NCBI GenBank assembly: GCA_038063515.1
Contig: JBBTUY010000006.1
Coordinates: 26,505-90,504, forward strand
Direction: 5' to 3'
Length of the DNA stretch: 64,000 nt
From: Patescibacteria group bacterium
GTDB lineage: Bacteria; Patescibacteriota; Minisyncoccia; Phycocordibacterales; UBA9973
Shown: positions 17,795 to 64,000 of the stretch, piece by piece
Layout: each line of letters starts with the position of its first letter
Numbering within the stretch: the first letter of the stretch is position 1
Notes under the pieces: generated by a model
Databases searched by the model: none
Seen by the model: only the letters and a program-made list of their open reading frames with translations
What the model was told of the DNA's origin: nothing
Position numbers and translations under genes: made by a program

Positions 17795-18892
17795 CTACCT
17801 ATTCATAGGCATAATAAGATACGTAAAAGAAGTATCAGAAACAGCAGAAACGACGATAGGGCGAGAGGTGTCGTGAAGTTTTATAGATATGCTATCTGTT
17901 GTTATAGACTGGAAACAATCTAAGAAGTATTTATAGTTAAAACCGAGCTCTACATTTTCTCCTTGTATAGCAGCATCTAAAAGTGTTTTATTTTCACCAA
18001 CATCATTATTAAAGGAAGATAATTCAAAAACTTTTTCTTTTGGTTTAATTACAAGATTAACTTGGTTAAATTTATCTGAAAATATATTAGATAGCTTTAG
18101 TGCGTTTAAAAGGTCTTGTTTAAGTAAGGTGGTTGTTGTTTTAAATTCTTTAGGAATAATTTGATGGTAATCAGGGAAAATGCCGTCTATGACACGGGAT
18201 GTCAGATATATATCATCAGAAGAAAAAGAAATTGAGTTTTTATTAAAACAAACCTTGATATTTCCTTTATAATCTCCGAAAATTCTAAGCATTTCTGAAA
18301 CATTTTTATATGGAATAAGGATGCCGAGTATCTCTGGTACACCTTTTACTTTTATCTTTTTCTCTGCAAGTCTAAATGAGTCTGTGGAAACAAAGACAAG
18401 GTTATCATCTTTTGTATACATAAAAACACTTGAAATTTCAGGTTTTATATCCGAAATAGATGAGCTGTAGTATACAGATTTTATTCCATTTATTAATTTA
18501 AGAGATTCTATTTCAAAAGTCTCCCCCACAACCCTTGGTATAGTAGGGAAATCATCGTGTGGTTGACCTTTTACTTTTATAGTACTTCTTTTGGTTTTTA
18601 TTAATAAATTTCCATCAACACCTTCAAATGAAATAGTTTCGTTTTGAAATAAATTAGAAAGTATCCCGGACAAAACAGAGCCGGAAACAGCCACAATACC
18701 CTCTTTCTCTACTTTAGCTGGTATGTCTACTTCTATGCCGAGGCTTAGGTTTGTAGATCTAATTTTTAATTTCTTATCTACCGCAATAAGTAGTACAGAG
18801 CTTAGTATTGGCAGAGTTAAATTTTTACCAGTAATCTTTTCTGCTTGGGTAATTCCGTTTTTGATTTGTTCTATTTTACATTCTAATTTCAT
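17795..18892 (-). CDS. dnaN: DNA polymerase III beta sliding clamp
   Basis: 365 aa, three-domain length. It sits immediately downstream of dnaA. Sequence runs MKLECKIEQIKNGI..TLPILSSVLL. Confidence 0.9.
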   Translation of the reverse strand: MKLECKIEQIKNGITQAEKITGKNLTLPILSSVLLIAVDKKLKIRSTNLSLGIEVDIPAKVEKEGIVAVSGSVLSGILSNLFQNETISFEGVDGNLLIKTKRSTIKVKGQPHDDFPTIPRVVGETFEIESLKLINGIKSVYYSSSISDIKPEISSVFMYTKDDNLVFVSTDSFRLAEKKIKVKGVPEILGILIPYKNVSEMLRIFGDYKGNIKVCFNKNSISFSSDDIYLTSRVIDGIFPDYHQIIPKEFKTTTTLLKQDLLNALKLSNIFSDKFNQVNLVIKPKEKVFELSSFNNDVGENKTLLDAAIQGENVELGFNYKYFLDCFQSITTDSISIKLHDTSRPIVVSAVSDTSFTYLIMPMNR

Positions 18893-24068: not shown

Positions 24069-24071
24069 AAA

Positions 24072-26089: not shown

Positions 26090-26114
26090 TTTCTAATTGT
26101 ATAACAAAAAGTGA

Positions 26115-27977: not shown

Positions 27978-27981
27978 ATAT

Positions 27982-28620
27982 TTATTCTAATTTAATCTTC
28001 CCTTCTACTTCCCCTGGATTAAAGACTTTGTAGAATACCTCTATCACTTCTTCGGTGCCCAAAAGAGCTGATTTTATACCACAACGGCTAAGACCCTGCT
28101 GTATGACACCCACTCTCTGTTCTAGCTGTGACTTCTTTTCTTCGAAGTCTTCCTGTTTCCTCAGTAGTTTTTCTTCTTTACTCTTTCTCTTAAATATTCT
28201 ATCTAGTATACCTTCATCTGATTTTAAAACATTATGAGAATACGGGACTATAATAAAGAAGCTTTTAGTCATTATGTTTACAGATTCTGTAAAATTCATA
28301 ATAAAATTTATGTATTCTTTGGTCTGCAGTTTAAGTAATGGTTCACTCTGTACTTTCATTCTATTTTCTAAAAGTAAAATGTATGGCCTTATGTCTAGTT
28401 TCCTTGATTGTACTGATATTTGAATAGTAAAATCTAAAGTGTTTAGGAAATTTTGAAATTGAAATATTGTAGCTTTTTGCTCATCTGAAGATTTTAGCGA
28501 AAGGTTCACTGAGTTTGCAAGGACTATGGCTCGCAAGCCACCGTCTTTTAGCACAATGATTCCATCGCGTACTTCTTTTATGGGTACAAATTCTTGTGTT
28601 GCTTTAGCTTTTAATGCCAT
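27982..28620 (-). CDS. VirB4 N-terminal-domain-like protein (212 aa), apparently the detached N-terminal part of the ATPase
   Basis: FVPIKEVRDGIIVLKDGGLRAIVLANSVNLSLKSSDEQKATIFQFQNFL matches the pattern at the extreme N-terminus of VirB4/TraE-type ATPases. Together 212+620 = 832 aa, the usual VirB4 size. Confidence 0.45.
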   Translation of the reverse strand: MALKAKATQEFVPIKEVRDGIIVLKDGGLRAIVLANSVNLSLKSSDEQKATIFQFQNFLNTLDFTIQISVQSRKLDIRPYILLLENRMKVQSEPLLKLQTKEYINFIMNFTESVNIMTKSFFIIVPYSHNVLKSDEGILDRIFKRKSKEEKLLRKQEDFEEKKSQLEQRVGVIQQGLSRCGIKSALLGTEEVIEVFYKVFNPGEVEGKIKLE

Positions 28621-28660
28621 TTATATATTGTATACTATTTTTACCTAAAAATTCTTAAAC

Positions 28661-29095
28661 TTACTTGTTTATTTCGTGTTTACTTAAATCAAGTACGTCC
28701 AAACTCCATGCAAGGTCTCTAAGCTTACTTTTGTTTAATCGTGGATTGCTTACCGACAGTGCCACCTCCTTCTCTTTTTTTGCAGCCTCAATCGTTTTAT
28801 TTGGATTTACTTTATTTTGGCGTCTTTTCCAAATATACAATTTACTTTGTAGTCCATATCTGAGCCCTGCTTCAAGCATTTCTATAAATGGCTTGTTGTT
28901 TGGCTTATAGAATGTGAGCGTCAGAGAAAATCCAGCTACGGCAAGCATAGGCACTAACCCTAAAAGTAAGCCTAGTAATTCGTAAATTACAAAACACATT
29001 CCCGCCCCGCCTGCTAGATATATAAATTCTTTAAAGGTAAATGGACCAAAAATTTTGTCTTCTACTTCTAAAAATTGTGGTACTTTGAATTGCAT
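28661..29095 (-). CDS. Small two-TM membrane protein, VirB3/TcpE-like by size, topology and position upstream of VirB4
   Basis: 144 aa with the hydrophobic hairpin FIYLAGGAGMCFVIYELLGLLLGLVPMLAVAGFSLTLTFY. Assignment is by context only. Confidence 0.35.
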   Translation of the reverse strand: MQFKVPQFLEVEDKIFGPFTFKEFIYLAGGAGMCFVIYELLGLLLGLVPMLAVAGFSLTLTFYKPNNKPFIEMLEAGLRYGLQSKLYIWKRRQNKVNPNKTIEAAKKEKEVALSVSNPRLNKSKLRDLAWSLDVLDLSKHEINK

Positions 29096-29124
29096 ATTGT
29101 TTTATTTATGGTGAGCTTACTCTG

Positions 29125-29892
29125 CTATTCGTCCGGTGAGAGACGATACGGATCCCCTTTGGGCGGATAGGACACTCTTACTTCTTCTTTGTTTTGTCCG
29201 CTTACCTTACTCTCTTTCTTTGTTTCAGTTGTTCCTATTGTGTATTCTGTTTTTGTTGTGGGATTTTGTACTGATGTTGCTATCTTTTCTTTGATTAATG
29301 GGTGAATACCTCCACTTACTGTATTTAAATTATTATTTATAGGTGTTGGCTCTGGATTCTCTACCATTTTTAAGGTGTCCTCTCTTTCCTCATTAGTAGC
29401 TTTTTTTATTTTTATTCCTTCTTCTACGTCTGGTTCTATTCTCGGATTGATTTTTATACCTGTTGATTCTAGTATGTCGTTATCAACTTTTTTTATTTCT
29501 TGTTCTATTTCAATACTTTGCTCTGGTTTCGGCTCAGCTTTTTTAGTAAAACTATTTTTTCTTTCTGTGATTTGAATCATCTCCTCTTTTATCTTTTTAA
29601 AGATAGACTCATTTAGTTCATGTGTTAATTCTTGTGCAGATGCTTCAGATATATGCATTTTTTCCGCTATTGTCTTGGTGTACTCGTGTGGATTTAATAG
29701 TCCACAGAGTAATAATTCTGTTTCTAATTCTAAGTCCCCGAGTTGTTCAAAATCATACCCTTTTGTTTCACGTAATTTTAAAAGGGCAGCCCTCCAGTCT
29801 ACTTGCGCAATAGCATTTAGGGTGTCTTCGGGCAATTTTGCTTTTGCCTGTTCTATTTTTATTTGTAGTGATGCGGGTATGTTGTTTTGCAT
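29125..29892 (-). CDS. Hypothetical protein (255 aa, hydrophilic, no TM)
   Basis: Operon member with no recognisable motif. Confidence 0.4.
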   Translation of the reverse strand: MQNNIPASLQIKIEQAKAKLPEDTLNAIAQVDWRAALLKLRETKGYDFEQLGDLELETELLLCGLLNPHEYTKTIAEKMHISEASAQELTHELNESIFKKIKEEMIQITERKNSFTKKAEPKPEQSIEIEQEIKKVDNDILESTGIKINPRIEPDVEEGIKIKKATNEEREDTLKMVENPEPTPINNNLNTVSGGIHPLIKEKIATSVQNPTTKTEYTIGTTETKKESKVSGQNKEEVRVSYPPKGDPYRLSPDE

Positions 29893-29901
29893 TTATGTAT
29901 T

Positions 29902-30429
29902 TTATTCCTCTTTATCATTATATAGGAATTTACTTTTTATGTCTTTGATTTTGGAATCATTTTCTACTACATACCCACCTATTTTTTGATTATTTTTAGG
30001 GTGAGTAGGTTCTTCCCTGTCACTTGGTGTAAGAAATGATGCGTAGTCTCCACCAGAGAGAATAAAATTCATATCCTTCTCTAATTTCTTTGAGGGGTCG
30101 GAGCTTACGGCATGATTCATGATATCTAAGAGTTCTTTAAAACTAGAGAATATTTCTCTATGTATTTCTTCTACTATATTAGATGCCTTTAGGTGATCAA
30201 TTTTTAATTCTTGGGTAAGCGAAGACTCGAAGTTTTTTAAAGGTGCGAGCCCCATCATTATAAGTGTGGTCTCTTTCCCTAAAATATCTATGCCTTCTTG
30301 ATCTAGCTCGTTTTTCATACCTATACTTGCTAGGGCCTCCTCGTAGTGAGGTGACATAATTTCCTCCTGAATAGTTTGGGGGAGAGCATAAAATTTTTCT
30401 TGTATTATTTTTATTGTATCGTTATCCAT
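29902..30429 (-). CDS. Hypothetical protein (175 aa)
   Basis: Operon member with no recognisable motif. Confidence 0.4.
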   Translation of the reverse strand: MDNDTIKIIQEKFYALPQTIQEEIMSPHYEEALASIGMKNELDQEGIDILGKETTLIMMGLAPLKNFESSLTQELKIDHLKASNIVEEIHREIFSSFKELLDIMNHAVSSDPSKKLEKDMNFILSGGDYASFLTPSDREEPTHPKNNQKIGGYVVENDSKIKDIKSKFLYNDKEE

Positions 30430-30446
30430 ATTTTTAGCTAAATTAA

Positions 30447-32846
30447 TTAATGGTGTGCTGCGTGACTGTCATGAGCTGGTGCGGAACTAGTAGTAGGTGT
30501 TGTATGTGTTGCAGCAGCTGGTACGGGGTGTGCTGGTGCAGCCGGGTGTGCAGCATCGTGTGGGTTAAGTATGTGTCCTAAGTGTTCGAGCACCTCATCT
30601 TTTTCAGATTCAATTTTAGCTCCACCTACTTTTGCAACAAATTCTCTGTTTTGTACACTTATACCCTCTCTAAAGGCATGTATAAATCCTCCCAGTGCTG
30701 GTGCTACTATCATCCCTACTCCTCCTGTTACAGCTCCTGCTGCTAAAGTTCCTATTTGACCCATCGGTGATGTAAGGGTCTTTCCTACTCCCATTTTATA
30801 ATTATCCCAGAAATTTTTCATTGCTTTTTCTACCTTAATAGCTCCACTATCTGTGTCTTTTATTGAGTTACTTAAACTATTTAGGTATGCAGCCTTGCGT
30901 CTTTTATTTACTTCTTCAGCTGTCTCTACTTTTATAAGTTTTTTACCTAGACCTTTAAAGTTTAACCCATACTCTTTGAGATCTACACCATTTTCATAAT
31001 CAGCTTTAAATTTCTTTTCATCAAACTCAAGACCCTTTCCTGCAACAAACTTCCTTGCGTTTTCTAGATTTTCCTCATATTTTTTATATATTTCATTTTG
31101 CGCCTTTCCTTGTTCAGAGGATGCAAAGTTGTCTTGATCCTTTGCGTTGGCACCACTTAATTCATGAGTCTTCATTCTATCCTGTGCTTTTTTCGCATCT
31201 CGTTTCTCTTTTGCTTTATATCCACCCTTAAGACTTGCACTATCTAATCCGAGAATAGTACCTCCTTTGGCAAAATCTAACCCACCCTTACTTTTAAGAA
31301 GTTTACCGAGTCCTGTATCTCTAGGATCGAAACTCTTACTAGCTATCGAGTTTGCAAAATCAAGTTTTCTTTGTGCCCATCTATCACCTGACGCAGCTTT
31401 ATCCTGGAGTTCTCTGTTGTTCGCTGTTGACATTGCTGCTGCCCCTATGGTGCTTCTTAGTGCAACACTTGTGCCACCTGATGCTACTCCGACTGCAAGG
31501 CCTCCTACTGCAGCTGCAAGTGTCGCTCCTCCTGATATGACTGCTTTACTAAATTCTCCACTACCCTTCTTTGCATAGTCTACAGCCTTTAAGAGAAGGC
31601 TTATGTTTATAATTGCAGGAAGTATTGTAAGTAATAATAATCCAGCAAATGCTTCCAAGCCTTTATTTTGTGTAAATGTATTCCCTATATTTTTAAATAT
31701 ATCTATTTGAATAATTTTAGATATTATAAGCATAAAGAACATGAAAATAGGAGCCATGAATGCTACGGAAAATAGTCGGCTAGACCATGAATCCCATCCT
31801 ATATAATCCATTTTCTTTAATTCTGGCATTGCAAAAGACATAAATGCAAAAGGTGCAAAAATTATAAGTATCCAGAATTCTATAAGTCTACCAAGAAAAG
31901 CAAATGCAGCTATAAAAAATGCGTAAGATGCTATCAAGAATATAGCTCCAGCAGTAAATATAAGTAGTAAGGTTATAGATGTTGGCACACCTACGCTGTT
32001 ACCAAATACTGCTTGTTGTACAACACCACCCACTGCTGCTCCACCCGGTATTGGAGTCATTGCACCTATAATAGCACCCGTAAGCCAGCTTGCGCCTTGT
32101 GTTTCTTTAAATTTATCTAGATTGATAAAATTGTTTGGGTTAAAGCCGGATACTATTCCCCCAGCAAAATTCTTTTCTTCCACCCCAGTCTTTTCTGTGT
32201 TTGTAATTGGTTCTGATTTAGTTACTACCTCACCATTTTTTGTGACCACTGTTATTTTATTGTAGAAGACAAGCGCAAGTACGTTTGAAGAATCTATAAC
32301 TACTTGCGTGAAAAACATACTGAAGTTTATAAATAGTGCTACTATTATAACTTCTGATATTACTTTCTTAACTTCCGATCCTCCTAATCCAAGTATGGTT
32401 TTAAATGCTACATGTAAGAGTATTATTATAAAAAATATATTAGAGATATCTCTAACTATCTTCCATGCTTCAGAAAGGAAGTCGTTATCAAATAGGAGAC
32501 TGCTTAATGTTATTGCCAAGCTTGCATTGAAAAGTTGTGCCACCAGCCACAATATCCCTGAAGGTAATACGTAAAATAGAGTGTAAATTATTCTAGTTAA
32601 ACATTTATCAGGAGATCCATCAAAAAAGTTTGCACATCCAATGCTTTCGTCGAGGCTGGTCTTTGTGTCTTTTGTACTACCATCTGGAGTTGGTGATGAT
32701 GCAGCACCAGTTGGTGTGGTTGTTGTAGGAGGTAGTGGCGACGTTTCAGTTTCTGGTGAGCCTTGTGCTTGTACATTAAAAACTGGACTAAAAAATCCTG
32801 AGGTAAATGCAGTTATTAATATTAAAGTTAAAAACCTTTTTTTCAT
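30447..32846 (-). CDS. Polytopic membrane protein with a long hydrophilic C-terminal extension (VirB6/TrbL/TcpH-like architecture), 799 aa
   Basis: Signal peptide, Thr/Pro-rich linker and at least 6 strongly hydrophobic helices (e.g. ITLLLIFTAGAIFLIASYAFFIAAFAFLG, FWILIIFAPFAFMSFAM, FMAPIFMFFMLIISKII). A roughly 330-aa charged C-terminal tail ends in a His/Ala/Pro-rich segment. Confidence 0.4.
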   Translation of the reverse strand: MKKRFLTLILITAFTSGFFSPVFNVQAQGSPETETSPLPPTTTTPTGAASSPTPDGSTKDTKTSLDESIGCANFFDGSPDKCLTRIIYTLFYVLPSGILWLVAQLFNASLAITLSSLLFDNDFLSEAWKIVRDISNIFFIIILLHVAFKTILGLGGSEVKKVISEVIIVALFINFSMFFTQVVIDSSNVLALVFYNKITVVTKNGEVVTKSEPITNTEKTGVEEKNFAGGIVSGFNPNNFINLDKFKETQGASWLTGAIIGAMTPIPGGAAVGGVVQQAVFGNSVGVPTSITLLLIFTAGAIFLIASYAFFIAAFAFLGRLIEFWILIIFAPFAFMSFAMPELKKMDYIGWDSWSSRLFSVAFMAPIFMFFMLIISKIIQIDIFKNIGNTFTQNKGLEAFAGLLLLTILPAIINISLLLKAVDYAKKGSGEFSKAVISGGATLAAAVGGLAVGVASGGTSVALRSTIGAAAMSTANNRELQDKAASGDRWAQRKLDFANSIASKSFDPRDTGLGKLLKSKGGLDFAKGGTILGLDSASLKGGYKAKEKRDAKKAQDRMKTHELSGANAKDQDNFASSEQGKAQNEIYKKYEENLENARKFVAGKGLEFDEKKFKADYENGVDLKEYGLNFKGLGKKLIKVETAEEVNKRRKAAYLNSLSNSIKDTDSGAIKVEKAMKNFWDNYKMGVGKTLTSPMGQIGTLAAGAVTGGVGMIVAPALGGFIHAFREGISVQNREFVAKVGGAKIESEKDEVLEHLGHILNPHDAAHPAAPAHPVPAAATHTTPTTSSAPAHDSHAAHH

Positions 32847-32858
32847 TTTATTAATTTT

Positions 32859-35060
32859 CTAACTCGGTGTCCATTTATTGTTTTTTTCTATACCTAAACA
32901 TTCATCTTTAGTTAATCCTGGTATTTTAAGCACACCTATTTGGCAGATGCCACGTGTTTCTGTCGGTGTTGTTGTTGGATTTACAGTCGTGCTGTATGGT
33001 GAAGGTGTGTCTGATATTTTGTAGTCTCCTGAGCTACTGTTATATATAGCGTTACAATTTATATTGTTATTACCATAAGATGTGCAGAATACAGTTTTTT
33101 CTGTTTGGATGTTATTAAATAGACTATTCTCTCCTCCTGGGTTGGTCCATGTTTTAGCTGTTCTTTCATTCGAACACTTTATTATTAGGGTATTTTGGTA
33201 ATTCACTTTATCTTTTAAATCATCTACTACGTTTTGTGCTTCCCTAACTGTTTCATTTGTAGAAAGCTCTAATATCATTCCATTGATTCTCTCTTTTAGT
33301 CTTACCATTGTTTTTTCATTTTCAGATCCTGGTGCTGGTTGTGTTGTTATTGCACTTAAACTTCCTCTTATTGATTCTAGTTTTACTAAAGTTTGAGTTA
33401 GTGTATCTTTTCTAGCTACTAATTCGTTTACTTTTTCACTTGTGGTTTTAGTAGAAGATACTTCACTCAAGTAGCTCGGTGAACTCGGTAATTCACTTCT
33501 CATTTTATTTTTCACCCACTCTTTAAAAGAGTTGGCTGTGGCAGTGATACTGTCATTGTAGGCAGTATCTGTTGTGAATTTGCTCTGTATGTCATTGTCA
33601 AGCCTATCTTCCCATCCAACATTTGGTCCAGGTAGGCACATGTCGAGTTCTTGTGTTTTTTGTAACACTCGATCAAATAATTGTGACAATCCAAGGTTGT
33701 TTACATCAGTATTGTCTATTAATTTTAGTTCTGTATTGGCTCTAGTTATCGCATCATTTACATCTTTTTTGAAAGTAGTTAAGATTATTTCCTCATCTGG
33801 TCCTCCCCAGTTAAAGCCGGTACCACTTGTAGTATTCACTGATGGGCTACCGAGTGTATGTCCGTAGTAACTAAAATTGTCGTCATCAGTATTGTTTCCA
33901 TTACCACTTATTTTACTTGAAAGTGCGTTTAATCCATCCTTCATAAATTTATTTAAGAGCGCATCAAATATCGCAGAGAGACTGTTGCCCATAGCAGCAG
34001 CGAGTGAGGTCTGGTCGTATGGTCCAGTGATCGCTTTCATGATTTGTGCACTGACTACTGAGCCTGGAGTAGTATTTACAAGTCCACCTGGGCAACCATT
34101 TTCTGATTCCCAATTTATTCTTTCATTATCATTTTTTATACTCCATTGCAGTTTTTGTTCATCGTATGTATCATAAATTGAATTATATCTTGTATTCCAT
34201 TCGTCATTTGATTCATCTGGTCTCCTTGTCGGTACTTCAGGTTCAGTTGGTTCAGGAGTAGACGACTTAAATGTAGGCTGGTTAAATTGGTTTTTTAGAT
34301 TATTATATCGTGGGTTACTTGGACATGTCTGTGGAGACAAGAAGCCCATACCTTGTTGTAGTGTGTCTTTTACAATATCAGCTTGGTTTTGACCTGTACC
34401 TCGGAGTCTTTTTGCTAGCTCATCTTCGTACATCATCTGGAATCCAAGAGAATTGTTTTGAGGGTATTGAGTATTTAAAAGGAATCCATTCCATCCTCCA
34501 ACACTAAAGTTGTTTCTATATCTAGAAAGAAGCTGTGGATCTCTCGTCACTTGGCTTAAGCTATATTGTGCGTTCGTAGCAAACTGTTTTTTGTAGCTTT
34601 CTATTGTGTTTATGGCTGTTGACTTACCAAATGGGTATTTATTACTGTCATAACCTATGATGTTTACTAGTTTTTTGATCTCGTATTTTCCTATGTCTTT
34701 AAAAAATGCTCCTGGGCGCTCTAGGAAAAGTGGTGCTCCATGAAAGCCGGAGTTTATCCAGTTTATGGTGGCTTGAGTCATCTGTTGTAAGAGTCTGCGT
34801 GCAAAGGTACGTAGTGTTTCGCGTAATACTTCTTTAGCCCATTCTTTTATATTAATGCTTGCAGTTGTAGCACTACTAACTGATGTTGCACCAGTAAAAA
34901 ACTTAGTAAGCCATGATACTGGGGCTGTGTCGTTAACTATAGTTGCTGGAAATACTGCCTCTGTTTTTTTAGGTGTAGAAAATATAAAAATAGGTGTTAT
35001 TATTGCAATAATAACTAAGAAAGAAATTATTTTTTGATTTATTTTGTTTTTAAAATTCAT
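32859..35060 (-). CDS. Large secreted/anchored hypothetical protein (733 aa)
   Basis: N-terminal TM/signal (IISFLVIIAIITPIFIFS). Ser/Thr/Asn-rich with a Cys-containing C-terminus. No recognised domain. Confidence 0.45.
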   Translation of the reverse strand: MNFKNKINQKIISFLVIIAIITPIFIFSTPKKTEAVFPATIVNDTAPVSWLTKFFTGATSVSSATTASINIKEWAKEVLRETLRTFARRLLQQMTQATINWINSGFHGAPLFLERPGAFFKDIGKYEIKKLVNIIGYDSNKYPFGKSTAINTIESYKKQFATNAQYSLSQVTRDPQLLSRYRNNFSVGGWNGFLLNTQYPQNNSLGFQMMYEDELAKRLRGTGQNQADIVKDTLQQGMGFLSPQTCPSNPRYNNLKNQFNQPTFKSSTPEPTEPEVPTRRPDESNDEWNTRYNSIYDTYDEQKLQWSIKNDNERINWESENGCPGGLVNTTPGSVVSAQIMKAITGPYDQTSLAAAMGNSLSAIFDALLNKFMKDGLNALSSKISGNGNNTDDDNFSYYGHTLGSPSVNTTSGTGFNWGGPDEEIILTTFKKDVNDAITRANTELKLIDNTDVNNLGLSQLFDRVLQKTQELDMCLPGPNVGWEDRLDNDIQSKFTTDTAYNDSITATANSFKEWVKNKMRSELPSSPSYLSEVSSTKTTSEKVNELVARKDTLTQTLVKLESIRGSLSAITTQPAPGSENEKTMVRLKERINGMILELSTNETVREAQNVVDDLKDKVNYQNTLIIKCSNERTAKTWTNPGGENSLFNNIQTEKTVFCTSYGNNNINCNAIYNSSSGDYKISDTPSPYSTTVNPTTTPTETRGICQIGVLKIPGLTKDECLGIEKNNKWTPS

Positions 35061-45524: not shown

Positions 45525-45800
45525 CTAAAAAAGCTCTGAATGCGTGCCCATGTCAAATAATACCAAAACCAATTCCTGGTTCTTTATGTAATATATCAAA
45601 AGAATGTCAGGTCTTATGTGACACTCTCGAAAACCTTCAAAATTTCCTTGTAATGGATGGTCTTGATACTTACGGTCGAGCTTTTGTACAGATGCTAAGA
45701 CATCTATAACAAACTCGACTTCTTCTCTCTTGATTTTTCCTGAACGAGCTATCTTCTTGAAAGATTTTTGAAACCGTTTTGTGTAATGTCTGTAATACAT
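45525..45800 (-). CDS. Type II toxin, RelE/YafQ family mRNA interferase
   Basis: 91 aa. HYTKRFQKSFKKI...DHPLQGNFEGFRECHIRPDILLIYYIKNQELVLVLFDMGTHSELF matches the YafQ family signature (..GY/FRECHI.PDWLLIY....L.L.R.G.HS.LF). Confidence 0.8.
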   Translation of the reverse strand: MYYRHYTKRFQKSFKKIARSGKIKREEVEFVIDVLASVQKLDRKYQDHPLQGNFEGFRECHIRPDILLIYYIKNQELVLVLFDMGTHSELF

Positions 45801-45803
45801 ATC

Positions 45804-46085
45804 TTATTTTACCCTTTCCATGTCATCAAACATCTCTTTTGTTGAAGAGTATCTCTTGCCATGCTTTATGGCTTGTTCCGCCTCTTTTTTATATGTAGCT
45901 AGCATTTTTGGAGTGTATTTATGCATAAAGCCGAACGGGCATATATAGGTAGTACTTTTTGGGTCCCCTACCTGGGTTAAAAGATATTTTATACCAGAAG
46001 ATAAATCCAGTCCCATGTCCTTAAAAGCCTTTTTAGCTTTTGTTTTTGTGGATGCATCTATTCTTATTTGTATAGTTGTACTCAT
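45804..46085 (-). CDS. Antitoxin, DinJ/RelB family
   Basis: 93 aa with the N-terminal IQIRIDASTKTKAKKAFKDMGLDLSSGIKYLLTQV ribbon-helix-helix pattern. It sits immediately upstream of the toxin with a 3-bp gap. Confidence 0.7.
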   Translation of the reverse strand: MSTTIQIRIDASTKTKAKKAFKDMGLDLSSGIKYLLTQVGDPKSTTYICPFGFMHKYTPKMLATYKKEAEQAIKHGKRYSSTKEMFDDMERVK

Positions 46086-51595: not shown

Positions 51596-53368
51596 ATGCA
51601 AAAAAATTGTAATTTTTGTAAAAAAGATTTTGAAATACCAAAACAAGAACTTTCTTTTTATGAAAAGATAAATGTTCCCCTCCCCCAATTCTGCTCTGAC
51701 TGTCGACTTCAAAACAGAATGGTTTTTCGCAATGAACGAACTCTCTATAAAAGAAAATCAGATGCGCCAAACTCTACGGGAGAAATTTTCTCAATATTTT
51801 CACCAGACTCAGATCAAACAGTTTATGATCACAAGACATGGTGGGGAGATTCTTGGGATGCAATGAGCTACGGTGAGGAAATAGATTTTACTAAATCATT
51901 TTTTGAACAATTAAAAAGTTTATGGAGAAAAGTTCCTGATGTCGCACTTCTCAATATCAATCCTGTTAACAGTGATTACTGTAGTATAACTGAAGGGAAT
52001 AAAAATTGTTATTTAGTTGTAGGCGGAGACTTCAATGAAAATGTAATGTATTCAAGTTTTACATTTAATACTCGTGATAGTGTAGACCTACATTGGGTGT
52101 CTAAAAGTGATCTTTGTTATGAGAGTACTGACTGCACTTCTTGTTCAAAAGTTTTATATAGCAGACAATCAGAGTCATGTCTCGACTCTGCATTTTTATT
52201 TAATTGTAAAAATTCTAGTAATTGTTTTGGTTGTGTAAATTTACGCAATGCGCAGTACTGTTTTTTCAATGAACAGTTAGATAAGGAGACGTATGAAGCA
52301 AAAATGAAAAGTATCGACCTAACTTCTTTTTCTCAAGTAGAAGAATATAAGAAAAAATTTGAAGATTTTATTTTAAAATACCCACATAAATTTGCTCGTA
52401 TCATTAGATCAGTAAACTCTACTGGAGACAACCTAGAAGGAACAAAGAATTGTATAAATAGCTTTGACGTATTTGGTGGAGCAAAGGATTGTGGCAACAT
52501 TTGGCTTGCTTATTCTGAGGTGGGTGATTGTTATGACTGTGATCATTTTGGTAAAAATTCACAAGACTCTTATCAGACCTCTACTGTGTATCCTGGAAAT
52601 AAAGTTTTATTTTCAAGATTTATTTTTGAGTCTCATGATATTTCATACTCATACAACTGCCATAATTCTTCCAATCTTTTTGGTTGCGTAGGACTTCGTA
52701 ATAAAAATTATTGTATTTTCAACAAACAATATTCCAAAGAAGAATATATGGAGCTTGTAGAAAAATTAAAAGAGCATATGAATACCATGCCGTATGTAGA
52801 TAAGACAGGCGTACTATATGCATATGGTGACTTCTTCCCATCAGATCTTTCACCTTTTGGTTATAATGAAACAGTTGCACACGAGCTCTTCCCTCTTACG
52901 AAAGAAGAAGCAGAAAACAAAGGTTTTTCTTGGAGAGAAAAGCCTGTTCGTACCTACACTATAGACATACATTCGAAGGACTTATCAGATACATACGAGG
53001 GCGTGGATGAAAACATTCTCGAGAAAGTAATAGGTTGTATGCATGATGAGAATTGCGTACATCAATGTACAAAAGCTTTTCGATTTACTCAGAATGAATT
53101 TGATTTTTATAAAAAAATGAAAGTTCCTCTTCCTCGACTTTGCTATAACTGTAGATATCACGAAAGAATATTTAAAAGAAATCCAGTAAAATTATGGACA
53201 AGAATATGTGAATGTAGCGGAGAAAATTCTTCTAATGGAGTTTACAAAAATACTCGTAAACATGATCACGCAAGTGCACCATGTACTAATGAATTTGAAA
53301 CTCCCTATCCACCTACTAGTAAGGAGATAATATACTGCGAGAAGTGTTATCAGCAAGAAGTTTATTAG
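51596..53368 (+). CDS. Cysteine-rich repeat protein of unknown function (590 aa) with zinc-ribbon-like termini
   Basis: N- and C-terminal CxxC...CxxC pairs lie in similar contexts (FYEKINVPLPQFCSDCRLQNRMVFRNE / FYKKMKVPLPRLCYNCRYHERIFKRNP). The internal repeats are NCKNSSNCFGCVNLRNAQYCFFN / NCHNSSNLFGCVGLRNKNYCIFN. No family is recognised. Confidence 0.6.
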   Translation: MQKNCNFCKKDFEIPKQELSFYEKINVPLPQFCSDCRLQNRMVFRNERTLYKRKSDAPNSTGEIFSIFSPDSDQTVYDHKTWWGDSWDAMSYGEEIDFTKSFFEQLKSLWRKVPDVALLNINPVNSDYCSITEGNKNCYLVVGGDFNENVMYSSFTFNTRDSVDLHWVSKSDLCYESTDCTSCSKVLYSRQSESCLDSAFLFNCKNSSNCFGCVNLRNAQYCFFNEQLDKETYEAKMKSIDLTSFSQVEEYKKKFEDFILKYPHKFARIIRSVNSTGDNLEGTKNCINSFDVFGGAKDCGNIWLAYSEVGDCYDCDHFGKNSQDSYQTSTVYPGNKVLFSRFIFESHDISYSYNCHNSSNLFGCVGLRNKNYCIFNKQYSKEEYMELVEKLKEHMNTMPYVDKTGVLYAYGDFFPSDLSPFGYNETVAHELFPLTKEEAENKGFSWREKPVRTYTIDIHSKDLSDTYEGVDENILEKVIGCMHDENCVHQCTKAFRFTQNEFDFYKKMKVPLPRLCYNCRYHERIFKRNPVKLWTRICECSGENSSNGVYKNTRKHDHASAPCTNEFETPYPPTSKEIIYCEKCYQQEVY

Positions 53369-55021
53369 TTATTTCCTCACCCCATGCTTTTGGTGAAGTT
53401 TTGCTACTTCTTTTTCTTCGAGCTCTTCTTTTTTCTCTTTAGCACTATCTCCTAAGGCTTTTAATTCTTTGTCATTTAATTTATTCAGAGATAAGGTAAT
53501 TTCACTCAAATTCTCCACTGTGTTTTTAGTAGGATCATCGAGAACTTCTTCGAGGAGTGCATTTAAGATCCAGCCCATTCTTGGTCCTGGATTTATTTGT
53601 AATTCTTTCATCAGATACTCTCCATTTATTTTTAACTGTCCGACAGAGATCGGATCTCGGAGCGCCTCCTCTATCATGGCATGATATTTTCTTAGTCTGT
53701 ATGAAGTCTCTTTTTTATTTGTTCCTACTCTGTCGCATTCGCGGAGATTCATTAGGAGCCAGATATTTTCTTTACCAATTTTTGCAATTATCCTTCTCAC
53801 GGCAGAGAGTGTGATCTGCTCTGTGTCAGAGAAAAACATATGGTTTCGTACTAGCTTTTCTACGAGCTCAATTTCCTTTCGAGGGAATTTCAATCTCTCC
53901 ATAATCTTTTTTGTCATGCGTGCACTTACGACTTCATGTCCATAAAAAGTGTATTGCTTCTTCCCTACTCTACTCTCTTCTCTCCTGCTTCGTGGCTTGC
54001 CTATGTCATGGAAAAGCGCAGCGAGCCTCACTTCTTTTTGCCATTTCTTGTCTACTGCATGCTGGAGTCCATAGAGTAAATGATTCCATACATCATACAC
54101 ATGCTCGCCTGACTGCATACATCCTATTCCCTCTTCGAGTTCAGGAATAATATTTTTTAATAAATTAAATTTTTGTAGCAATACTATCCCCGCACTCGCA
54201 TTGTCTGACATTATTATCTTCACGAACTCTTCACGTATCCTTTCGGGGGATATTTTTTTTATTGAATCTGCATTTTTTAAAATACTTTCTGTCGTGTCAG
54301 ATGATATTGAGAAATCTAATTGTGTGGAAAAACGCACAGCACGTAAAATGCGAAGTGCATCTTCACTGAAACGTTCATCAGCATCCCCCACTGTCCGTAA
54401 GGTTTTATTATCTATGTCTTTTATGCCATCAAACATGTCTGTTATATGTCCTTTAATATAGGACATAGCATTTATGGTGAAATCACGTCTCTTAAGGTCT
54501 TCTTCTAGTGTTTCTGCGAACTTTATATTGTCTGGATGTCTAGAATCAGTATAATCTGTCTCTGTTCTGTATGGAGTGACTTCTACTATAAGGTACTTAT
54601 CTCTATTTAAAGGGTTATTTTCCTCTAATGTTACATGTGAAACACTCTCAGAGGACGTTTCATGTGTAACGTCATCTGTCTGTTTATCAGCTTCGCTTAG
54701 TAGTGTTACATGTGAAACAATCGGTATACCCTCTTTTGCTGAACCTTCGACAGGTATACCCTTCTCCGCTGAAGCTACTAAGGGCACGCACACAGCTACT
54801 GTGCCAAAGGTATTCTCATATACTGTCTTTTCAAACAGTCTGACGATCTCTTCAGGCTTAGCATTAGTAGTGATATCCCAGTCATTAGGTTCCCTGCTCA
54901 TAAGTAGATCACGCACACATCCACCGACTAAATACGCTTCAAAACCACCTTTTTCAAGTGTTTGTGTTACATGTGAAACCTCTTTTGGGATTTTATGGTC
55001 TAAATTCTTTAGAATATCCAT
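53369..55021 (-). CDS. cca: CCA-adding enzyme / poly(A) polymerase family nucleotidyltransferase with an HD domain and a repeat-containing insertion
   Basis: 550 aa. The head domain has GFEAYLVGGCVRDLLM and DWDITT. The HD domain has LFHDIGKP. A roughly 60-aa low-complexity insertion (EKGIPVEGSAKEGIPIVSHVTLL..VSHVTLEEN) carries repeats of the DNA motif GTGTTACATGTGAAAC. Confidence 0.8.
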   Translation of the reverse strand: MDILKNLDHKIPKEVSHVTQTLEKGGFEAYLVGGCVRDLLMSREPNDWDITTNAKPEEIVRLFEKTVYENTFGTVAVCVPLVASAEKGIPVEGSAKEGIPIVSHVTLLSEADKQTDDVTHETSSESVSHVTLEENNPLNRDKYLIVEVTPYRTETDYTDSRHPDNIKFAETLEEDLKRRDFTINAMSYIKGHITDMFDGIKDIDNKTLRTVGDADERFSEDALRILRAVRFSTQLDFSISSDTTESILKNADSIKKISPERIREEFVKIIMSDNASAGIVLLQKFNLLKNIIPELEEGIGCMQSGEHVYDVWNHLLYGLQHAVDKKWQKEVRLAALFHDIGKPRSRREESRVGKKQYTFYGHEVVSARMTKKIMERLKFPRKEIELVEKLVRNHMFFSDTEQITLSAVRRIIAKIGKENIWLLMNLRECDRVGTNKKETSYRLRKYHAMIEEALRDPISVGQLKINGEYLMKELQINPGPRMGWILNALLEEVLDDPTKNTVENLSEITLSLNKLNDKELKALGDSAKEKKEELEEKEVAKLHQKHGVRK

Positions 55022-55028
55022 TTTTATG

Positions 55029-55100
55029 TGCCCCTGGAGAGAATCGAACTCCCATCCTTAGTTCCGAAGACTAATGCTCTATCCATTGAGCTACAAGGGC
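55029..55100 (-). tRNA. tRNA-Arg (anticodon TCG)
   Basis: Reverse complement is gcccttgtagctcaatggatagagcattagtcttcggaactaaggatgggagttcgattctctccaggggca. It folds as a cloverleaf with anticodon loop CTTCGGA and T-arm GGGAGTTCGATTCTCTC. Confidence 0.8.
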
Positions 55101-55248
55101 AAACCTAATTTATAATAATAGAATTATACACTTTTATATAAAATTTACAATCTGTGCTTATTTTACAAGCTTATTACGTGATTGCTTTAAGATAAATAAA
55201 ATATTATAATCTATGTGTTAATTTTTGTTTAGGTTTTGATTAATACAT

Positions 55249-55319
55249 GCGGCCATAGTTTAGTGGTAAAACGGGTCCTTGCCAAGGATCAGATTGGAGT
55301 CCGATTCTCCATGGCCGCA
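55249..55319 (+). tRNA. tRNA-Gly (anticodon GCC)
   Basis: gcggccatagtttagtggtaaaacgggtccttgccaaggatcagattggagtccgattctccatggccgca has a 7-bp acceptor stem, anticodon loop TTGCCAA and T-arm TGGAG-TCCGATT-CTCCA. Confidence 0.85.
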
Positions 55320-55501
55320 CAGAATATATAATTGTCCTTTAATCAGGTCTTGTTAAATAAGGATTTTGTGGATAAATGTGTATAACTCTGTTGATAATGT
55401 TTATAAAGGACAGGTCTTAAAGGTGTCTTTGAAGTCCATTTTTACCCAAATAGCTTGTTAAATAAGGATATTTTAGTAAAAGACAGGATTTTAGACAAAG
55501 T

Positions 55502-55531
55502 GTTTCACGTGAAACGTGTTACATGTGAAAC
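55502..55531. promoter_or_regulatory. Tandem palindromic motif pair upstream of the YraN-family gene
   Basis: gtttcacgtgaaac (a perfect 14-bp palindrome) is immediately followed by gtgttacatgtgaaac. The second 16-mer also occurs at 54703-54718 and 54964-54979 inside cca, with variants at 54629-54643 and 54657-54670. Confidence 0.45.
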
Positions 55532-55549
55532 TAGATTAAAAATATTACT

Positions 55550-55948
55550 ATGCCAAAGGTATTTACCTCCGAAAAACAAAAAATAGGGGAATTAGGTGAG
55601 AATATGGCTGTAAAGTTCCTTGTGAAACAAGGATTTAAGGTTCTTGATAGAAATTATACTAAGAAATGGGGTGAAATAGACATAATAGCTAAAAAGGACT
55701 CCAAACTATACTTTATAGAGGTAAAAAGTGTTTCGTCTATTGTGAATCCTAATTCATCGTCAGATTATAGGGCAGAGGATAATATGCATCCGTGGAAAAT
55801 GCAGCGTTTATCAAGGACAATACAGACATATCTTTTAGAGAAAGATGTCGATGAAGACATAGAATGGCAGGTTGATCTTCTTGTGGTTTATTTAGATTTA
55901 AAAACCAATAAAGCAAAGGTGAAAGTGGTCAACGACATTATTTTATGA
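55550..55948 (+). CDS. YraN/UPF0102 family endonuclease-like protein
   Basis: 132 aa. GELGENMAVKFLVKQGFKVLDRNYTKKWGEIDIIAKKDSKLYFIEVKSVS is the PD-(D/E)xK-like YraN signature (E..A...L...G...L.RN.R...GEIDII..D....V.VEVK). Confidence 0.7.
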   Translation: MPKVFTSEKQKIGELGENMAVKFLVKQGFKVLDRNYTKKWGEIDIIAKKDSKLYFIEVKSVSSIVNPNSSSDYRAEDNMHPWKMQRLSRTIQTYLLEKDVDEDIEWQVDLLVVYLDLKTNKAKVKVVNDIIL

Positions 55949-56051: not shown

Positions 56052-56122
56052 CGGGCTGTAGTATACCGGTAGTACAAGCGCTTTGGGAGCGTTTAGACTG
56101 GGTTCGATTCCCAGCAGCCCGA
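56052..56122 (+). tRNA. tRNA-Pro (anticodon TGG)
   Basis: cgggctgtagtataccggtagtacaagcgctttgggagcgtttagactgggttcgattcccagcagcccga has anticodon loop TTTGGGA and T-arm CTGGG-TTCGATT-CCCAG. Its 3' terminal 15 nt are repeated at 56237-56251. Confidence 0.8.
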
Positions 56123-56124
56123 CA

Positions 56125-56236
56125 AGTCGGAATTGAACCGAGGTTCGAGTCACAATTTTTCTGCTGAAAAATCTCGCGACCCCGCCTCGCGTCGTCACGC
56201 TCCGGCTCTTTGATCAGGTCCCTGTCCCAATCAAAG
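56125..56236. other. 112-bp GC-rich segment bounded by 15-bp direct repeats of the tRNA-Pro 3' end
   Basis: cccagcagcccgaca (56110-56124) and cccagtagcccgaca (56237-56251) flank agtcggaattgaaccgaggttcgagtcacaattttt...gatcaggtccctgtcccaatcaaagc. The interior contains the T-arm-like ccgaggttcgagtc and a caggtccct stretch reminiscent of the family K core. Confidence 0.5.
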
Positions 56237-56266
56237 CCCAGTAGCCCGACAGTTGGATGTTTTCAT

Positions 56267-61829: not shown

Positions 61830-62055
61830 TTTCTTCGCGTAAAAGTTCCAGTGCATCTTCACAAGCAAGTAAAGCATTTGCCCCTTTCCCAGCTATATCT
61901 ATATTATTTGGTTTAGTGAGGGTCACAGTAAAAGCATCTTGTTCATTTTTACCATACTTCATTTCATAACCCTTCTCTCTTGCAAGTGTTATCAATTCTG
62001 TTTCTGCGTTATTTTTTAACCACCCATGATTTGTTTCTATATTTTCTCCTGGCAT
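61819..62055 (-). CDS. Small hypothetical protein (78 aa), possibly HicB-like
   Basis: The pattern YEMKYGKNEQDAFTVTLTKPNNIDIAGKGANALLACEDALELL loosely resembles the HicB/UPF0150 fold signature. Weak. Confidence 0.25.
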   Translation of the reverse strand: MPGENIETNHGWLKNNAETELITLAREKGYEMKYGKNEQDAFTVTLTKPNNIDIAGKGANALLACEDALELLREETTS

Positions 62056-62190
62056 ATATTTAAATTTTATACTTATTTATAAAATAAACAAGTTTTTAGT
62101 TTTTTAACTTAAAACTCAAGCTATATTTCTTGAATGTAGTTCCTTAAATCGATTATAGACATATTAATTTATGTGTAGTATTATAATTAT

Positions 62191-62580
62191 ATGAGTGAAG
62201 GTAAAAATACATTAAAAAAACCTAATTTGATAGTAATATTTGGACCTCCTGGGTCCGGTAAATCTACACAATCAGTTCTACTTGAGGAGAAAATGGGCTA
62301 TAAATATATTTCCTGGGGTAGAATTACTAGGAATATTATGAACGGCAATTTTGGATCTGATGATGATAAAAGAATAGTTCTTAACGATCTGGAGCATAAT
62401 TTTTTTTATCCAGAAAAATACATTAAAAATAAAGTACTAGAAAATTTTAAAGAAGAATTACAATTAGGCAATACTAATTTTGTTATTGATGGATTTCCAA
62501 AAAGGCTTCAAGAAGCTAAAGAATGTATAGAAATTATTAAAGAATTAAAGTTGATCGAATGTTTCACAACCAAGATTTAA
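62191..62580 (+). CDS. Adenylate-kinase-like P-loop NMP kinase fragment (129 aa, shorter than a full Adk)
   Basis: LIVIFGPPGSGKSTQSVLLEEKMGYKYISWGRITRN is the Adk P-loop and NMP-binding start. DGFPKRLQEA is the DGFPRT motif. It lacks the LID/C-terminal part and is overlapped by the next ORF. Confidence 0.45.
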   Translation: MSEGKNTLKKPNLIVIFGPPGSGKSTQSVLLEEKMGYKYISWGRITRNIMNGNFGSDDDKRIVLNDLEHNFFYPEKYIKNKVLENFKEELQLGNTNFVIDGFPKRLQEAKECIEIIKELKLIECFTTKI

Positions 62581-63248
62581 TTACAAACAAGCATGAGCAT
62601 GTACAGAATGTATCTGGTAGTTTCATAGAAATAGAGAAAAAATATTTATTAAGTAAGAAGGAAGTTGAGCTTCTTGAACAAAAATGTATAGAAATATCTT
62701 TACAACAAACGTCACATGCATACGAAAAAAATCAAAACTTCGATAGAGAAAATATCTTTGAAAAAGATGATGCTAGATTACGACTACGTACTAAGATATT
62801 AGATTTAAATGGGCAAGAAAAGAATTTTGAATTTACGTATAAAAAAAGACTTTCTACGGAAGGTGGTATAAAAAAAGAAAGCGAACTTAATTTTAACTTC
62901 ACTTCCACTCAATCATCTGAAAACTTATTAAGTATTTTTAAGATTATGGGTTTTAATGAAAAGGATTCCTATGAAAGAATAAGAAAAACTTTCAAGAATA
63001 ATGAGATTCAGTTGACTATAGATGAATTTCCTTTTGGATATATTGCTGAAATTGAAGGTGAGGAGGAAATGGTACTAAAATACGATAATTTACTTAAAAT
63101 GAGTAATTTTTTATTATATTCATTAAGTTGTGATGATGTATATGCTGAGTTGTGTAGAAAAAAAAGGATTAAGCCAAAAAACAACATTCTCTTTGAAGAT
63201 AAAGATATGCCAAAACTTGAAGATTATTTGAAGACATGGAAGAGATAA
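62559..63248 (+). CDS. CYTH-like domain protein (229 aa)
   Basis: IEIEKKYLL resembles the CYTH (CyaB/thiamine triphosphatase) N-terminal EIERKFLV signature. It overlaps the preceding Adk-like ORF by 22 nt in another frame. Confidence 0.4.
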   Translation: MFHNQDLITNKHEHVQNVSGSFIEIEKKYLLSKKEVELLEQKCIEISLQQTSHAYEKNQNFDRENIFEKDDARLRLRTKILDLNGQEKNFEFTYKKRLSTEGGIKKESELNFNFTSTQSSENLLSIFKIMGFNEKDSYERIRKTFKNNEIQLTIDEFPFGYIAEIEGEEEMVLKYDNLLKMSNFLLYSLSCDDVYAELCRKKRIKPKNNILFEDKDMPKLEDYLKTWKR

Positions 63249-64000
63249 AAAAACTTTTTATAAAACATTTTGGTTTTTTGCCTGATATAATATCAACAAC
63301 TGAACATTCTTATGTTTCTCCACCTTCTCGCTTAGTAAGTAGCTTAATTCAAATTTCAAATTTTACTAATAAAAAAGTACTTAGAATAATAATGACAGAT
63401 AGCTATGCTTCTCCACTGGATACAAGTATGAAAAGTATATGTTTGCCACATATTTTAAATAAAAATATATTCGTAATTGACTTAACGAAATCTAAAGAGG
63501 AAATCATTTCTAAATTAGAAGAAGATTGTCAATTCTTCGAAATGATTCTAGATAAGAAAAATATTTTTTCCAAAGAAGAAAGGTTAAATTATAATACTAT
63601 TATAAATATATACAGATATTCAATAAATAGTTTATCGGACATCGATTCTGTGAGTTTGTATAATAAGATAGTCCAAAAATACATAGAAATTTTCCAATTG
63701 GTTGATTTAAATAAATGGTTAAGTAACAGTGCTTCATTAGGTATAGATTGTTTAAAAATGAGAGTATTTTTAGAGCAGGCCTTCAAAATATTAATAAATA
63801 TTGACCCTGATGCTGTCGATTTGTTTGGAAAATATCTTGAAAATAATAAAAGACTGAAAGTTAGAGACATCAATAATTCTATTAAAATTGTTGATTGGGT
63901 TGTATATAAAAAAGAATTAACAAACAGTTCAAATTCCTACAATGTTATTTCAGAAATAATTTTATATATTTATAGTTATTGTGGAGGTTCTCATTTCGGT
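63236..64000 (+). CDS. Hypothetical protein, 5' portion (open to the window end, 255 codons or more)
   Basis: The reading frame is uninterrupted from ATG 63236 (MEEIKKLFIKHFGFLPDIISTTEHSY...) to position 64000 in a very AT-rich region. No motif is recognised. Confidence 0.4.
   Translation, partial: MEEIKKLFIKHFGFLPDIISTTEHSYVSPPSRLVSSLIQISNFTNKKVLRIIMTDSYASPLDTSMKSICLPHILNKNIFVIDLTKSKEEIISKLEEDCQFFEMILDKKNIFSKEERLNYNTIINIYRYSINSLSDIDSVSLYNKIVQKYIEIFQLVDLNKWLSNSASLGIDCLKMRVFLEQAFKILINIDPDAVDLFGKYLENNKRLKVRDINNSIKIVDWVVYKKELTNSSNSYNVISEIILYIYSYCGGSHFG

Follow-up and report, generated by a model that had tools for sequence, protein, structure and literature searches.

A probable parS cluster at the cca-YraN locus of a Patescibacteria genome, partly encoded in frame within cca

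A repeated palindrome within and between cca and YraN

The DNA considered here is a 64,000-nucleotide (nt) stretch from a Patescibacteria group bacterium (assembly GCA_038063515.1, contig JBBTUY010000006.1, positions 26,505 to 90,504), hereafter the window, and our subject is a near-palindromic motif that is repeated within about 1 kb of it. The repeats surround two divergent genes: cca, which encodes the CCA-adding enzyme, and a gene of the YraN/UPF0102 family. Two tRNA genes, an A+T-rich spacer and a trio of DnaA boxes lie between them (Table 1). GTTACATGTGAAAC is present in four exact copies, GTTTCACGTGAAAC once and a related variant once, all inside 54630-55531. The four upstream copies fall within the cca open reading frame (ORF), where three of them encode VSHVT and the fourth VTHET, and the intergenic pair of sites ends 18 nt 5' of the YraN ATG at 55550. 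Several of the copies are identical and in the same orientation, within 1 kb. These numbers far exceed what is expected by chance. When up to two mismatches are allowed, the window contains nine matches to the 14-mer (0.59 expected); the 16-mer TGTTTCACGTGAAACA with up to three mismatches has six (0.33 expected); and GTTWCAYRTGWAAC has six in the 64 kb, all at 54630-55531 (0.00 expected).

The motif had been noticed earlier in a reading of the letters of the window (the original prediction), and the coordinates given there were all confirmed. VSHVT, described as a repeated peptide of cca, occurs three times (residues 15-19, 102-106 and 127-131), and the accompanying GIP repeat is AEKGIPV/AKEGIPI, encoded by a 24-nt direct repeat at 54723 and 54753. 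The prediction placed all four intragenic copies in a low-complexity insertion, which is correct for three of them but not for the copy at 54964-54979, which encodes part of a structured N-terminal helix. It also proposed a check of read support for the repeat copy number. Nine contigs, from independent assemblies at NCBI, ENA and Logan, all encode the same 550-aa cca product, and the copy number is therefore not an assembly artifact.

The sequence at 55501-55516 is identical at 15 of 16 positions to the universal parS site, TGTTTCACGTGAAACA, and its 14-bp core is a perfect palindrome. parS is the chromosomal centromere bound by ParB (Spo0J), dimers of which load on the 16-bp site and slide to flanking DNA; the partition complex segregates the origin and recruits SMC. 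The consensus 16-mer, or a near-identical sequence, is listed for Bacillus, Corynebacterium, Mycobacterium, Caulobacter, Hyphomonas, Burkholderia and others, and is common to Firmicutes, Actinobacteria, Proteobacteria and other groups (PMC7022226 Table 1). The variant that recurs in the window, TGTTACATGTGAAACA, has two mismatches to parS and retains one canonical half-site, GTGAAAC; ParB binds half-parS sites of the form GTTTCAC/GTTCCAC (PMC7022226, section 4). In total, about seven parS-type sites can be recognized in 1 kb: two between cca and YraN, one in YraN, one in the N-terminal helix of cca and three in a loop of the enzyme. Five of the seven copies are intragenic, reaching up to 420 bp inside cca, and the site at 54656..54671 is separated from the next by 27 bp, the modal spacing among relatives.

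Judging from sequence, we consider the repeated near-palindrome to be very probably parS, and the locus to be an origin-proximal cluster at which ParB would load. The identity to parS, the clustering of the sites, their orthologous conservation and the selection on their DNA are documented here and below; binding by ParB and the functions resulting from it are what we infer from established knowledge of ParABS systems. One weak parS-like 16-mer, TACTTCACGTGAAACT, is the sole match elsewhere in the 64-kb window; it lies at 4795-4810 inside a NUDIX gene, has three mismatches and is probably a chance occurrence, because it lacks the invariant GTT of the core.

Table 1. Candidate parS sites, copies of the motif and other features of the window. 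Positions are those of the window.
Feature	Position	Strand	Remark
Primary parS candidate, TGTTTCACGTGAAACG	55501..55516	none	15/16 to universal parS, perfect core
Secondary parS variant, TGTTACATGTGAAACT	55517..55532		directly abuts primary site
Degenerate parS-like site in YraN, core GTTCCTTGTGAAAC	55614..55629		YraN codons 22-27 (KFLVKQ)
parS variant in cca, coding strand GTTTCACATGTAAC	54965..54980		cca codons 15-19 (VSHVT)
parS variant TGTTACATGTGAAACA in cca loop	54704..54719		cca codons 102-106 (VSHVT)
parS variant in cca loop, coding strand GTTACACATGAAAC	54656..54671		cca codons 118-122 (VTHET)
parS variant TGTTACATGTGAAACA in cca loop	54629..54644		cca codons 127-131 (VSHVT)
GTGTTACATGTGAAAC (16-mer)	54703-54718, 54964-54979, 55516-55531		exact copies
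TGTTACATGTGAAAC (15-nt version)	54629-54643
Variant GTTTCATGTGTAAC	54657-54670
Perfect palindrome GTTTCACGTGAAAC	55502-55515		adjoins the copy at 55516
cca, CCA-adding enzyme	53369..55021	-	PolyA_pol and HD domains (Pfam)
Family-specific disordered loop of cca	54602..54775	-	residues 83-140; bears the in-frame array of candidate parS sites
tRNA-Arg	55028-55100	-
82% A+T spacer between tRNA-Arg and tRNA-Gly	55101..55248		candidate unwinding region if oriC is here
tRNA-Gly	55249-55320	+
DnaA-box trio, TTATCCACA, TTATACACA, TTATCAACA	55367..55397	-	all on one strand
Inverted conserved 9-mers TGTCCTTTA/TAAAGGACA	55333-41 (+), 55404-12 (-), 55477-85 (-)		bracket the DnaA boxes
YraN/UPF0102 gene	55550..55948	+	divergent from cca
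dnaN	17795..18892
dnaA	19116..20462
T4SS pilin	24072-25100	-
TraG/VirD4-like ATPase	26115-27977	-
PrgI-like protein	28661-29095	-
Several large proteins	30447-35060	-	no Pfam match

Conservation among relatives and selection on the DNA

Scanning with a cca alignment retrieved 80 loci that belong to different Nomurabacteria/Paceibacterota species and whose cca is 58-71% identical; an independent negative control was provided by another 80 loci, 978 kb of dnaA surroundings in close relatives (DnaA 82-88% identical). The relatives carry parS-like sites at the same places as the window, namely in the cca-YraN spacer, at YraN codons 22-27, at cca codons 15-19 and in frame in the cca loop. Among 16-mers with at most two mismatches to parS (78 loci), 113 of the 115 extragenic matches are located 399-1377 bp upstream of cca, and most of the 86 intragenic matches are located 230-580 bp into the ORF, mostly in the cca loop. 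Of the 62 loci with enough flanking DNA, 41 have a perfect 14-bp core upstream of cca, and the perfect parS 16-mer is present in 12 relatives. In the other DNA sampled such sites are rare: apart from the weak match in the window, we detected no perfect 14-bp core in the other 524 kb of flanking DNA of the relatives and no parS-like site in the 978 kb around dnaA.

The arrangement of the spacer is also retained. In 68 of 80 relatives YraN and cca diverge, and most relatives have, at 2-13 bp from the primary parS, a further site in degenerate form, GTTTCAyrwrwAAC. In the alignment the order is YraN start, GTTTCAyrwrwAAC, primary parS, about 70 bp, the block TGTCCTTTATAAACATTACCAACATAGTTATCCACA, TAAAGGACA and a tRNA gene. 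Some sub-clades have further parS-like sites in the body of cca (L029, L052, L054, L069, L073, L075, L078, L082 and L084, at ~1.29-1.42 kb into the gene), and about a dozen loci have an extra one ~300 bp past the loop. Examples are ATTTCACATGAAAC, which encodes ISHET in the FSISxET region, and another site near the 3' end of the gene. Such sites suggest that additional ones are gained and lost along the gene.

The codons that overlap the motif indicate that it is the DNA that is conserved. We compared synonymous usage in three coding contexts, with the sites ascertained from protein sequence only. At cca codons 15-19, in 69 species, the first V is GTT in 69/69 and the second is GTA in 69/69; the intervening S is TCA in 53/53 or is replaced by T as ACA in 16/16, and H is CAT in 51/51. 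The wobble base of codon 19, just outside the 14-bp core, varies (ACA/ACT/ACC/ACG = 43/13/7/6). So do the codons of LVGGCVRD, a control motif conserved to the same degree, whose V, G, L and R residues make use of all synonyms. The second context is the loop motif xx[R/H/Q/C]ET (n = 115), in which E is GAA in every instance (71% elsewhere in cca). V in the loop motifs is GTT in 110/111 (26% elsewhere in cca), R is CGT in 45/56 and never AGA/AGG (which make up 46% elsewhere in cca), and H is CAT in 33/33. In YraN, where the site among relatives reads TGTTTCACGAGAAAC[T/C], L of the peptide FL[V/M]K is CTC in 31 of 49 cases, or 63%, compared with 5.8% elsewhere in the gene, and V is GTG in 26 of 27 (18% elsewhere).

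At all of these sites, it is the synonym nearest to parS that has been fixed. Because synonymous codons are frozen at these sites while those of the controls vary, selection acts on the DNA and not on the peptide. Such codons are expected if the protein constrains the amino acids and synonymous choice then serves to come as close as possible to a ParB site. The original prediction had held that absence of the motif elsewhere in the genome, together with orthologous cca genes carrying the same residues as conserved sequence, would point to chance similarity. VSHVT is indeed kept in orthologs, yet with its synonymous positions frozen, which argues for selection at the DNA level rather than chance.

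The two parts of cca that carry the sites differ in structure. In the AlphaFold2 model the N-terminal site falls in a confidently predicted helix (residues 13-24), while loop residues 83-140 have a predicted local distance difference test score (pLDDT) of 26-39 and no secondary structure, and form the tip of a beta-hairpin between strands 75-80 and 143-150. The loop is located between the motifs FGTV..V and EVTPYR, and in 73 species it ranges from 14 to 124 aa (median 31). Sites with at most three mismatches to the core occur in it at 19.9/kb, versus 0.49/kb in the rest of cca. At least one is present in the loop of 70 of the 73 species; 150 of 151 loop sites share one reading frame, and their modal spacing is 27 bp. 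Variation within the core falls on fixed, tolerated positions (4, 6, 8, 9 and 11), and the loop peptide is otherwise not conserved. In more distant cca clusters (representatives, at most 60% identity), the loop is typically an 8-residue hairpin without [R/H/Q/C]ET, and only the family's own representatives carry the insertion. This restriction to the family, together with the variation in length and the array of sites, indicates that the insertion is a hypervariable trait of this family and amounts, in essence, to an array of translated parS units. The comparison of cca orthologs proposed with the original prediction thus yields an insertion that is lineage-specific and variable in both length and copy number. 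The further suggestion that tandem duplication is expanding it proved apt in that duplication did add copies here: the two VSHVT copies in the loop are identical at 20 of 22 nt, flanks included, and a 30-bp tandem duplication lies alongside, which makes local duplication the proximate source of the extra copies in this genome.

DnaA boxes and the position of the origin

The cluster brackets the DnaA-box trio, both tRNA genes and the 82% A+T stretch, and it is situated 35 kb from dnaA and dnaN in the same window; on these grounds it marks the origin region. In the window, the trio lies 104-134 bp from the primary parS. Among the relatives, 44 of 44 loci have a same-strand DnaA box after parS, a perfect one in 37 of them, and the distance between the two elements is 115-117 bp in about half of these loci and below 150 bp in nearly all. 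The most A+T-rich 500-bp bin in relatives is the one that starts at parS and includes the DnaA boxes (and, in the window, also the spacer). The non-coding block 55321-55500, between tRNA-Gly and parS, is kept in relatives along with its distance to parS, and may be oriC or a DnaA-titrating cluster. Two copies of CTTGTTAAATAAGGAT, at 55349 and 55454, are found in this block.

The dnaA region has features of its own. The genes rnpA, yidC and jag diverge from dnaA and dnaN, and the dnaA flanks of relatives also hold two or three DnaA boxes; a cluster of five or more boxes was seen neither there nor in the cca-YraN spacer. Base composition is compatible with either position. In the window, which has a G+C content of ~35%, the cumulative GC-skew minimum lies at 50-56 kb, and a gene-wise regression of skew on strand and side, restricted to the window, places the best single switch at 55 kb. 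When flanking genes from neighboring contigs are included, a switch at 17-18 kb fits nearly as well (sum of squared errors 350.7 versus 362.1), so that the skew is compatible with a switch at 55 kb or at 17-20 kb. Since the second position fits almost as well, we do not claim that oriC is in the cca-YraN spacer. The parS cluster is origin-proximal whichever location holds oriC.

A model for the cluster, its alternatives and its surroundings

A mechanism that would account for these observations begins with ParB dimers that load on the canonical site and, less strongly, on the variants around it. From there the protein would spread across ~1 kb of DNA enclosing the DnaA-box and A+T-rich module, and the resulting partition complex would segregate the origin region and load SMC. 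Where the sites overlap structured protein, in the cca and YraN helices, the amino acids are kept and the synonyms closest to parS fixed, the outcome being two-mismatch variants with one canonical half-site, GTGAAAC. In the unconstrained hairpin loop, the family has gained one to six in-frame units of V-S-R-E-T or similar, commonly 27 bp apart, with local duplication adding copies in this genome. We tentatively extend this model to the loop as a whole, with somewhat less than even confidence: the insertion may exist because of its DNA, additional ParB-loading sites near the origin having created it and now maintaining and resizing it. Together with the intergenic pair and the YraN site, it would bracket the DnaA-box and A+T module in a compact origin-centromere unit away from dnaA.

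Several observations weigh against assigning the motif to parS. Six of the seven sites in the window differ from the consensus at two to four positions, and the intergenic variant at 55517-32 is non-canonical though free of coding constraint. No ParB gene was found in the window, where every ORF of 110 aa or more was compared with Pfam (E-values to 1 for unannotated ones), in ~8 kb beyond its left end and ~3.5 kb beyond its right end, or in the DNA of relatives searched with phmmer (Spo0J query) and the GERRxRA pattern, which comprised 750 kb at the cca loci and 978 kb at the dnaA loci. The Spo0J query was validated as ParB. The DNA sampled amounts to only ~3-4% of each genome, and the missing ParB is accordingly weak evidence; Parcubacteria genomes are generally <1 Mb (PMC4508563). 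Finally, the searchable literature contained no study linking ParB or parS with Patescibacteria or the candidate phyla radiation (CPR). A lineage that keeps a perfect universal parS yet lacks ParB is unlikely and would be a real surprise.

Among alternative explanations, the one that fares best, though we think it improbable, is that the palindromes are the operator of a dedicated transcription factor for YraN and/or cca, with the intragenic copies as auxiliary sites. The intergenic pair is suitably placed, ending 18 nt upstream of the YraN start codon with promoter-like hexamers nearby, and a gene for a TrmB-family regulator is found 4 kb away. However, only 17 of 80 loci have that gene, no regulator gene is consistently linked, and five of the seven sites are intragenic rather than confined to promoter regions. 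The 15/16 match to parS and the perfect 16-mers of 12 relatives also argue against an operator. ParB-parS complexes can modulate nearby transcription, and a regulatory side effect therefore needs no separate factor. The original prediction was right that a binding-site-like palindrome recurs in coding and non-coding DNA; its proposal of a regulator operator that has spread fails, because the motif reads as parS and is restricted, in the DNA sampled, to one ~1-kb locus at orthologous positions in some 60-70 species.

We give still less credence to the idea that the intragenic copies reflect a peptide selected in the protein (VSHVT/VSRET) or expansion by slippage, with an incidental resemblance to parS. 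Loop length does vary widely, and the loop in this genome contains recent local duplications (a 22-nt repeat family and the 30-bp tandem). But synonymous sites are frozen over 69-73 species while adjacent wobble positions and control codons vary, the motif is also found in non-coding DNA and, in another reading frame (FLVK), in a second gene, and the loop is predicted to be disordered, with a peptide that is not otherwise conserved.

An RNA-level element, in which hairpins in the cca mRNA and the YraN 5' untranslated region affect translation or stability, is more doubtful again. Palindromes can form hairpins, and cca codons 15-19 are near the translation start; a 14-nt perfect palindrome, however, leaves little or no loop. 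The same double-stranded palindrome is kept in transcripts of opposite polarity and in several frames, with conserved boundaries that coincide with the 14-bp DNA core. Compensatory substitutions between half-sites were not seen, the variation falling on core positions 4, 6, 8, 9 and 11, and the only Rfam matches are four tRNAs. Finally, a small mobile or recombinogenic repeat (like miniature inverted-repeat transposable elements or repetitive extragenic palindromes) inserted in cca and the spacer, an option raised in the original prediction and suggested by several identical copies in one orientation within 1 kb, has a negligible chance of being correct, since the copies are confined to that locus and are positionally orthologous and in frame across 60-70 species, no terminal repeats or target duplications surround the 14-16-mers, and matches elsewhere are limited to the weak one at 4795, with none in the 524 kb of flanks or the 978 kb around dnaA.

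Interpreted as parS, the motif has clear counterparts. Chromosomal parS/ParB systems of Bacillus subtilis, Caulobacter, Corynebacterium and Streptomyces (consensus tGTTNCACGTGAAACa) use the same 16-bp inverted repeat and likewise have several copies in the origin region, some inside genes and some imperfect beside canonical ones; the first parS of B. subtilis, for example, lies within spo0J. The present cluster differs from these in belonging to the Patescibacteria/CPR, in its compactness (~7 sites in 1 kb), in being mostly in frame in one housekeeping enzyme and in that the cognate ParB was not seen in the sampled DNA. With the half-parS sites bound by ParB of Pseudomonas aeruginosa and others, the variants share one canonical half, GTGAAAC, joined here to a diverged half, ATGTAAC. 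Those known half-sites number in the hundreds, dispersed and not positionally conserved, whereas the sites described here are clustered, full-length and conserved across species. A third relative is the Noc-binding site (NBS, ATTTCCCGGGAAAT), a 14-16-bp palindrome of the same family. Noc, which binds it, is a ParB paralogue of Firmicutes with the ParB-fold helix-turn-helix, and its sites, rather than being clustered, are spread around the chromosome outside the terminus region. At the positions that discriminate NBS from parS (core G at 1, CA at 5-6), the sites here are of the parS type. The neighboring DNA resembles oriC-type DnaA-box clusters, and recalls the link between ParA/ParB and DnaA known from B. 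subtilis, in having TTATCCACA boxes and an A+T-rich stretch in intergenic DNA near parS; unlike them, it has only three boxes, is 35 kb from dnaA and has a tRNA gene between the boxes and the A+T stretch.

Clusters of parS near origins, including copies inside genes, are textbook knowledge; the lineage is one for which no earlier description was found. Less ordinary are the in-frame parS array that forms a family-specific loop of an essential enzyme, the freezing of codons in three contexts and the recurrent parS-DnaA box spacing. To our knowledge, a recurrent distance of ~115 bp between these two elements across species has not been described before; it suggests a direct physical coupling of the segregation and initiation machineries. 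The locus provides a first concrete candidate centromere, and possibly origin, for a large uncultured family of ultra-small bacteria (Nomurabacteria/Paceibacterota), which could be used for orienting and closing genomes and in genetic tools such as stable vectors. It also offers a natural example of a DNA-binding site that constrains synonymous codons in three coding contexts and apparently shapes a hypervariable protein insertion, and as such bears on how low-complexity inserts and "conserved peptides" in reduced genomes are read.

The surroundings of the cluster and the remainder of the window contain other features. Convergent with cca is a gene for a 590-aa cysteine-rich protein (51596-53368, +) with many CxxC pairs and no significant Pfam match; the pairs suggest multiple zinc ribbons, and a homolog is found downstream of cca in 33 of 80 relatives. 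Beside jag is a run of genes resembling a type IV secretion system (T4SS; 22659-35060, -; components in Table 1). Since it neighbors dnaA-jag in 31-46 of 80 relatives, it is a stable feature of the lineage and not a recent island. A T4SS of Patescibacteria is reportedly homologous to the conjugation machinery of monoderms, according to a preprint. A toxin-antitoxin pair of the RelB/YafQ type (45525-46085, -; coordinates mapped from the L001 gene calls) lies between an NYN-domain gene and the gene for a 614-aa protein. Downstream of YraN, the last 15 nt of tRNA-Pro (CCCAGCAGCCCGACA, 56110-24) recur with 93% identity 127 bp further on (56237-51), just before tRNA-Gly(TCC); this repeat (window 56052-56251) looks like a scar left at the tRNA 3' end by integration or excision. 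The G+C content falls to 26% over 62001-64000, compared with ~35% for the window. This region holds genes for adenylate-kinase-like and CYTH proteins, which share 22 nt (62559-62580), and the ORF that comes after them.

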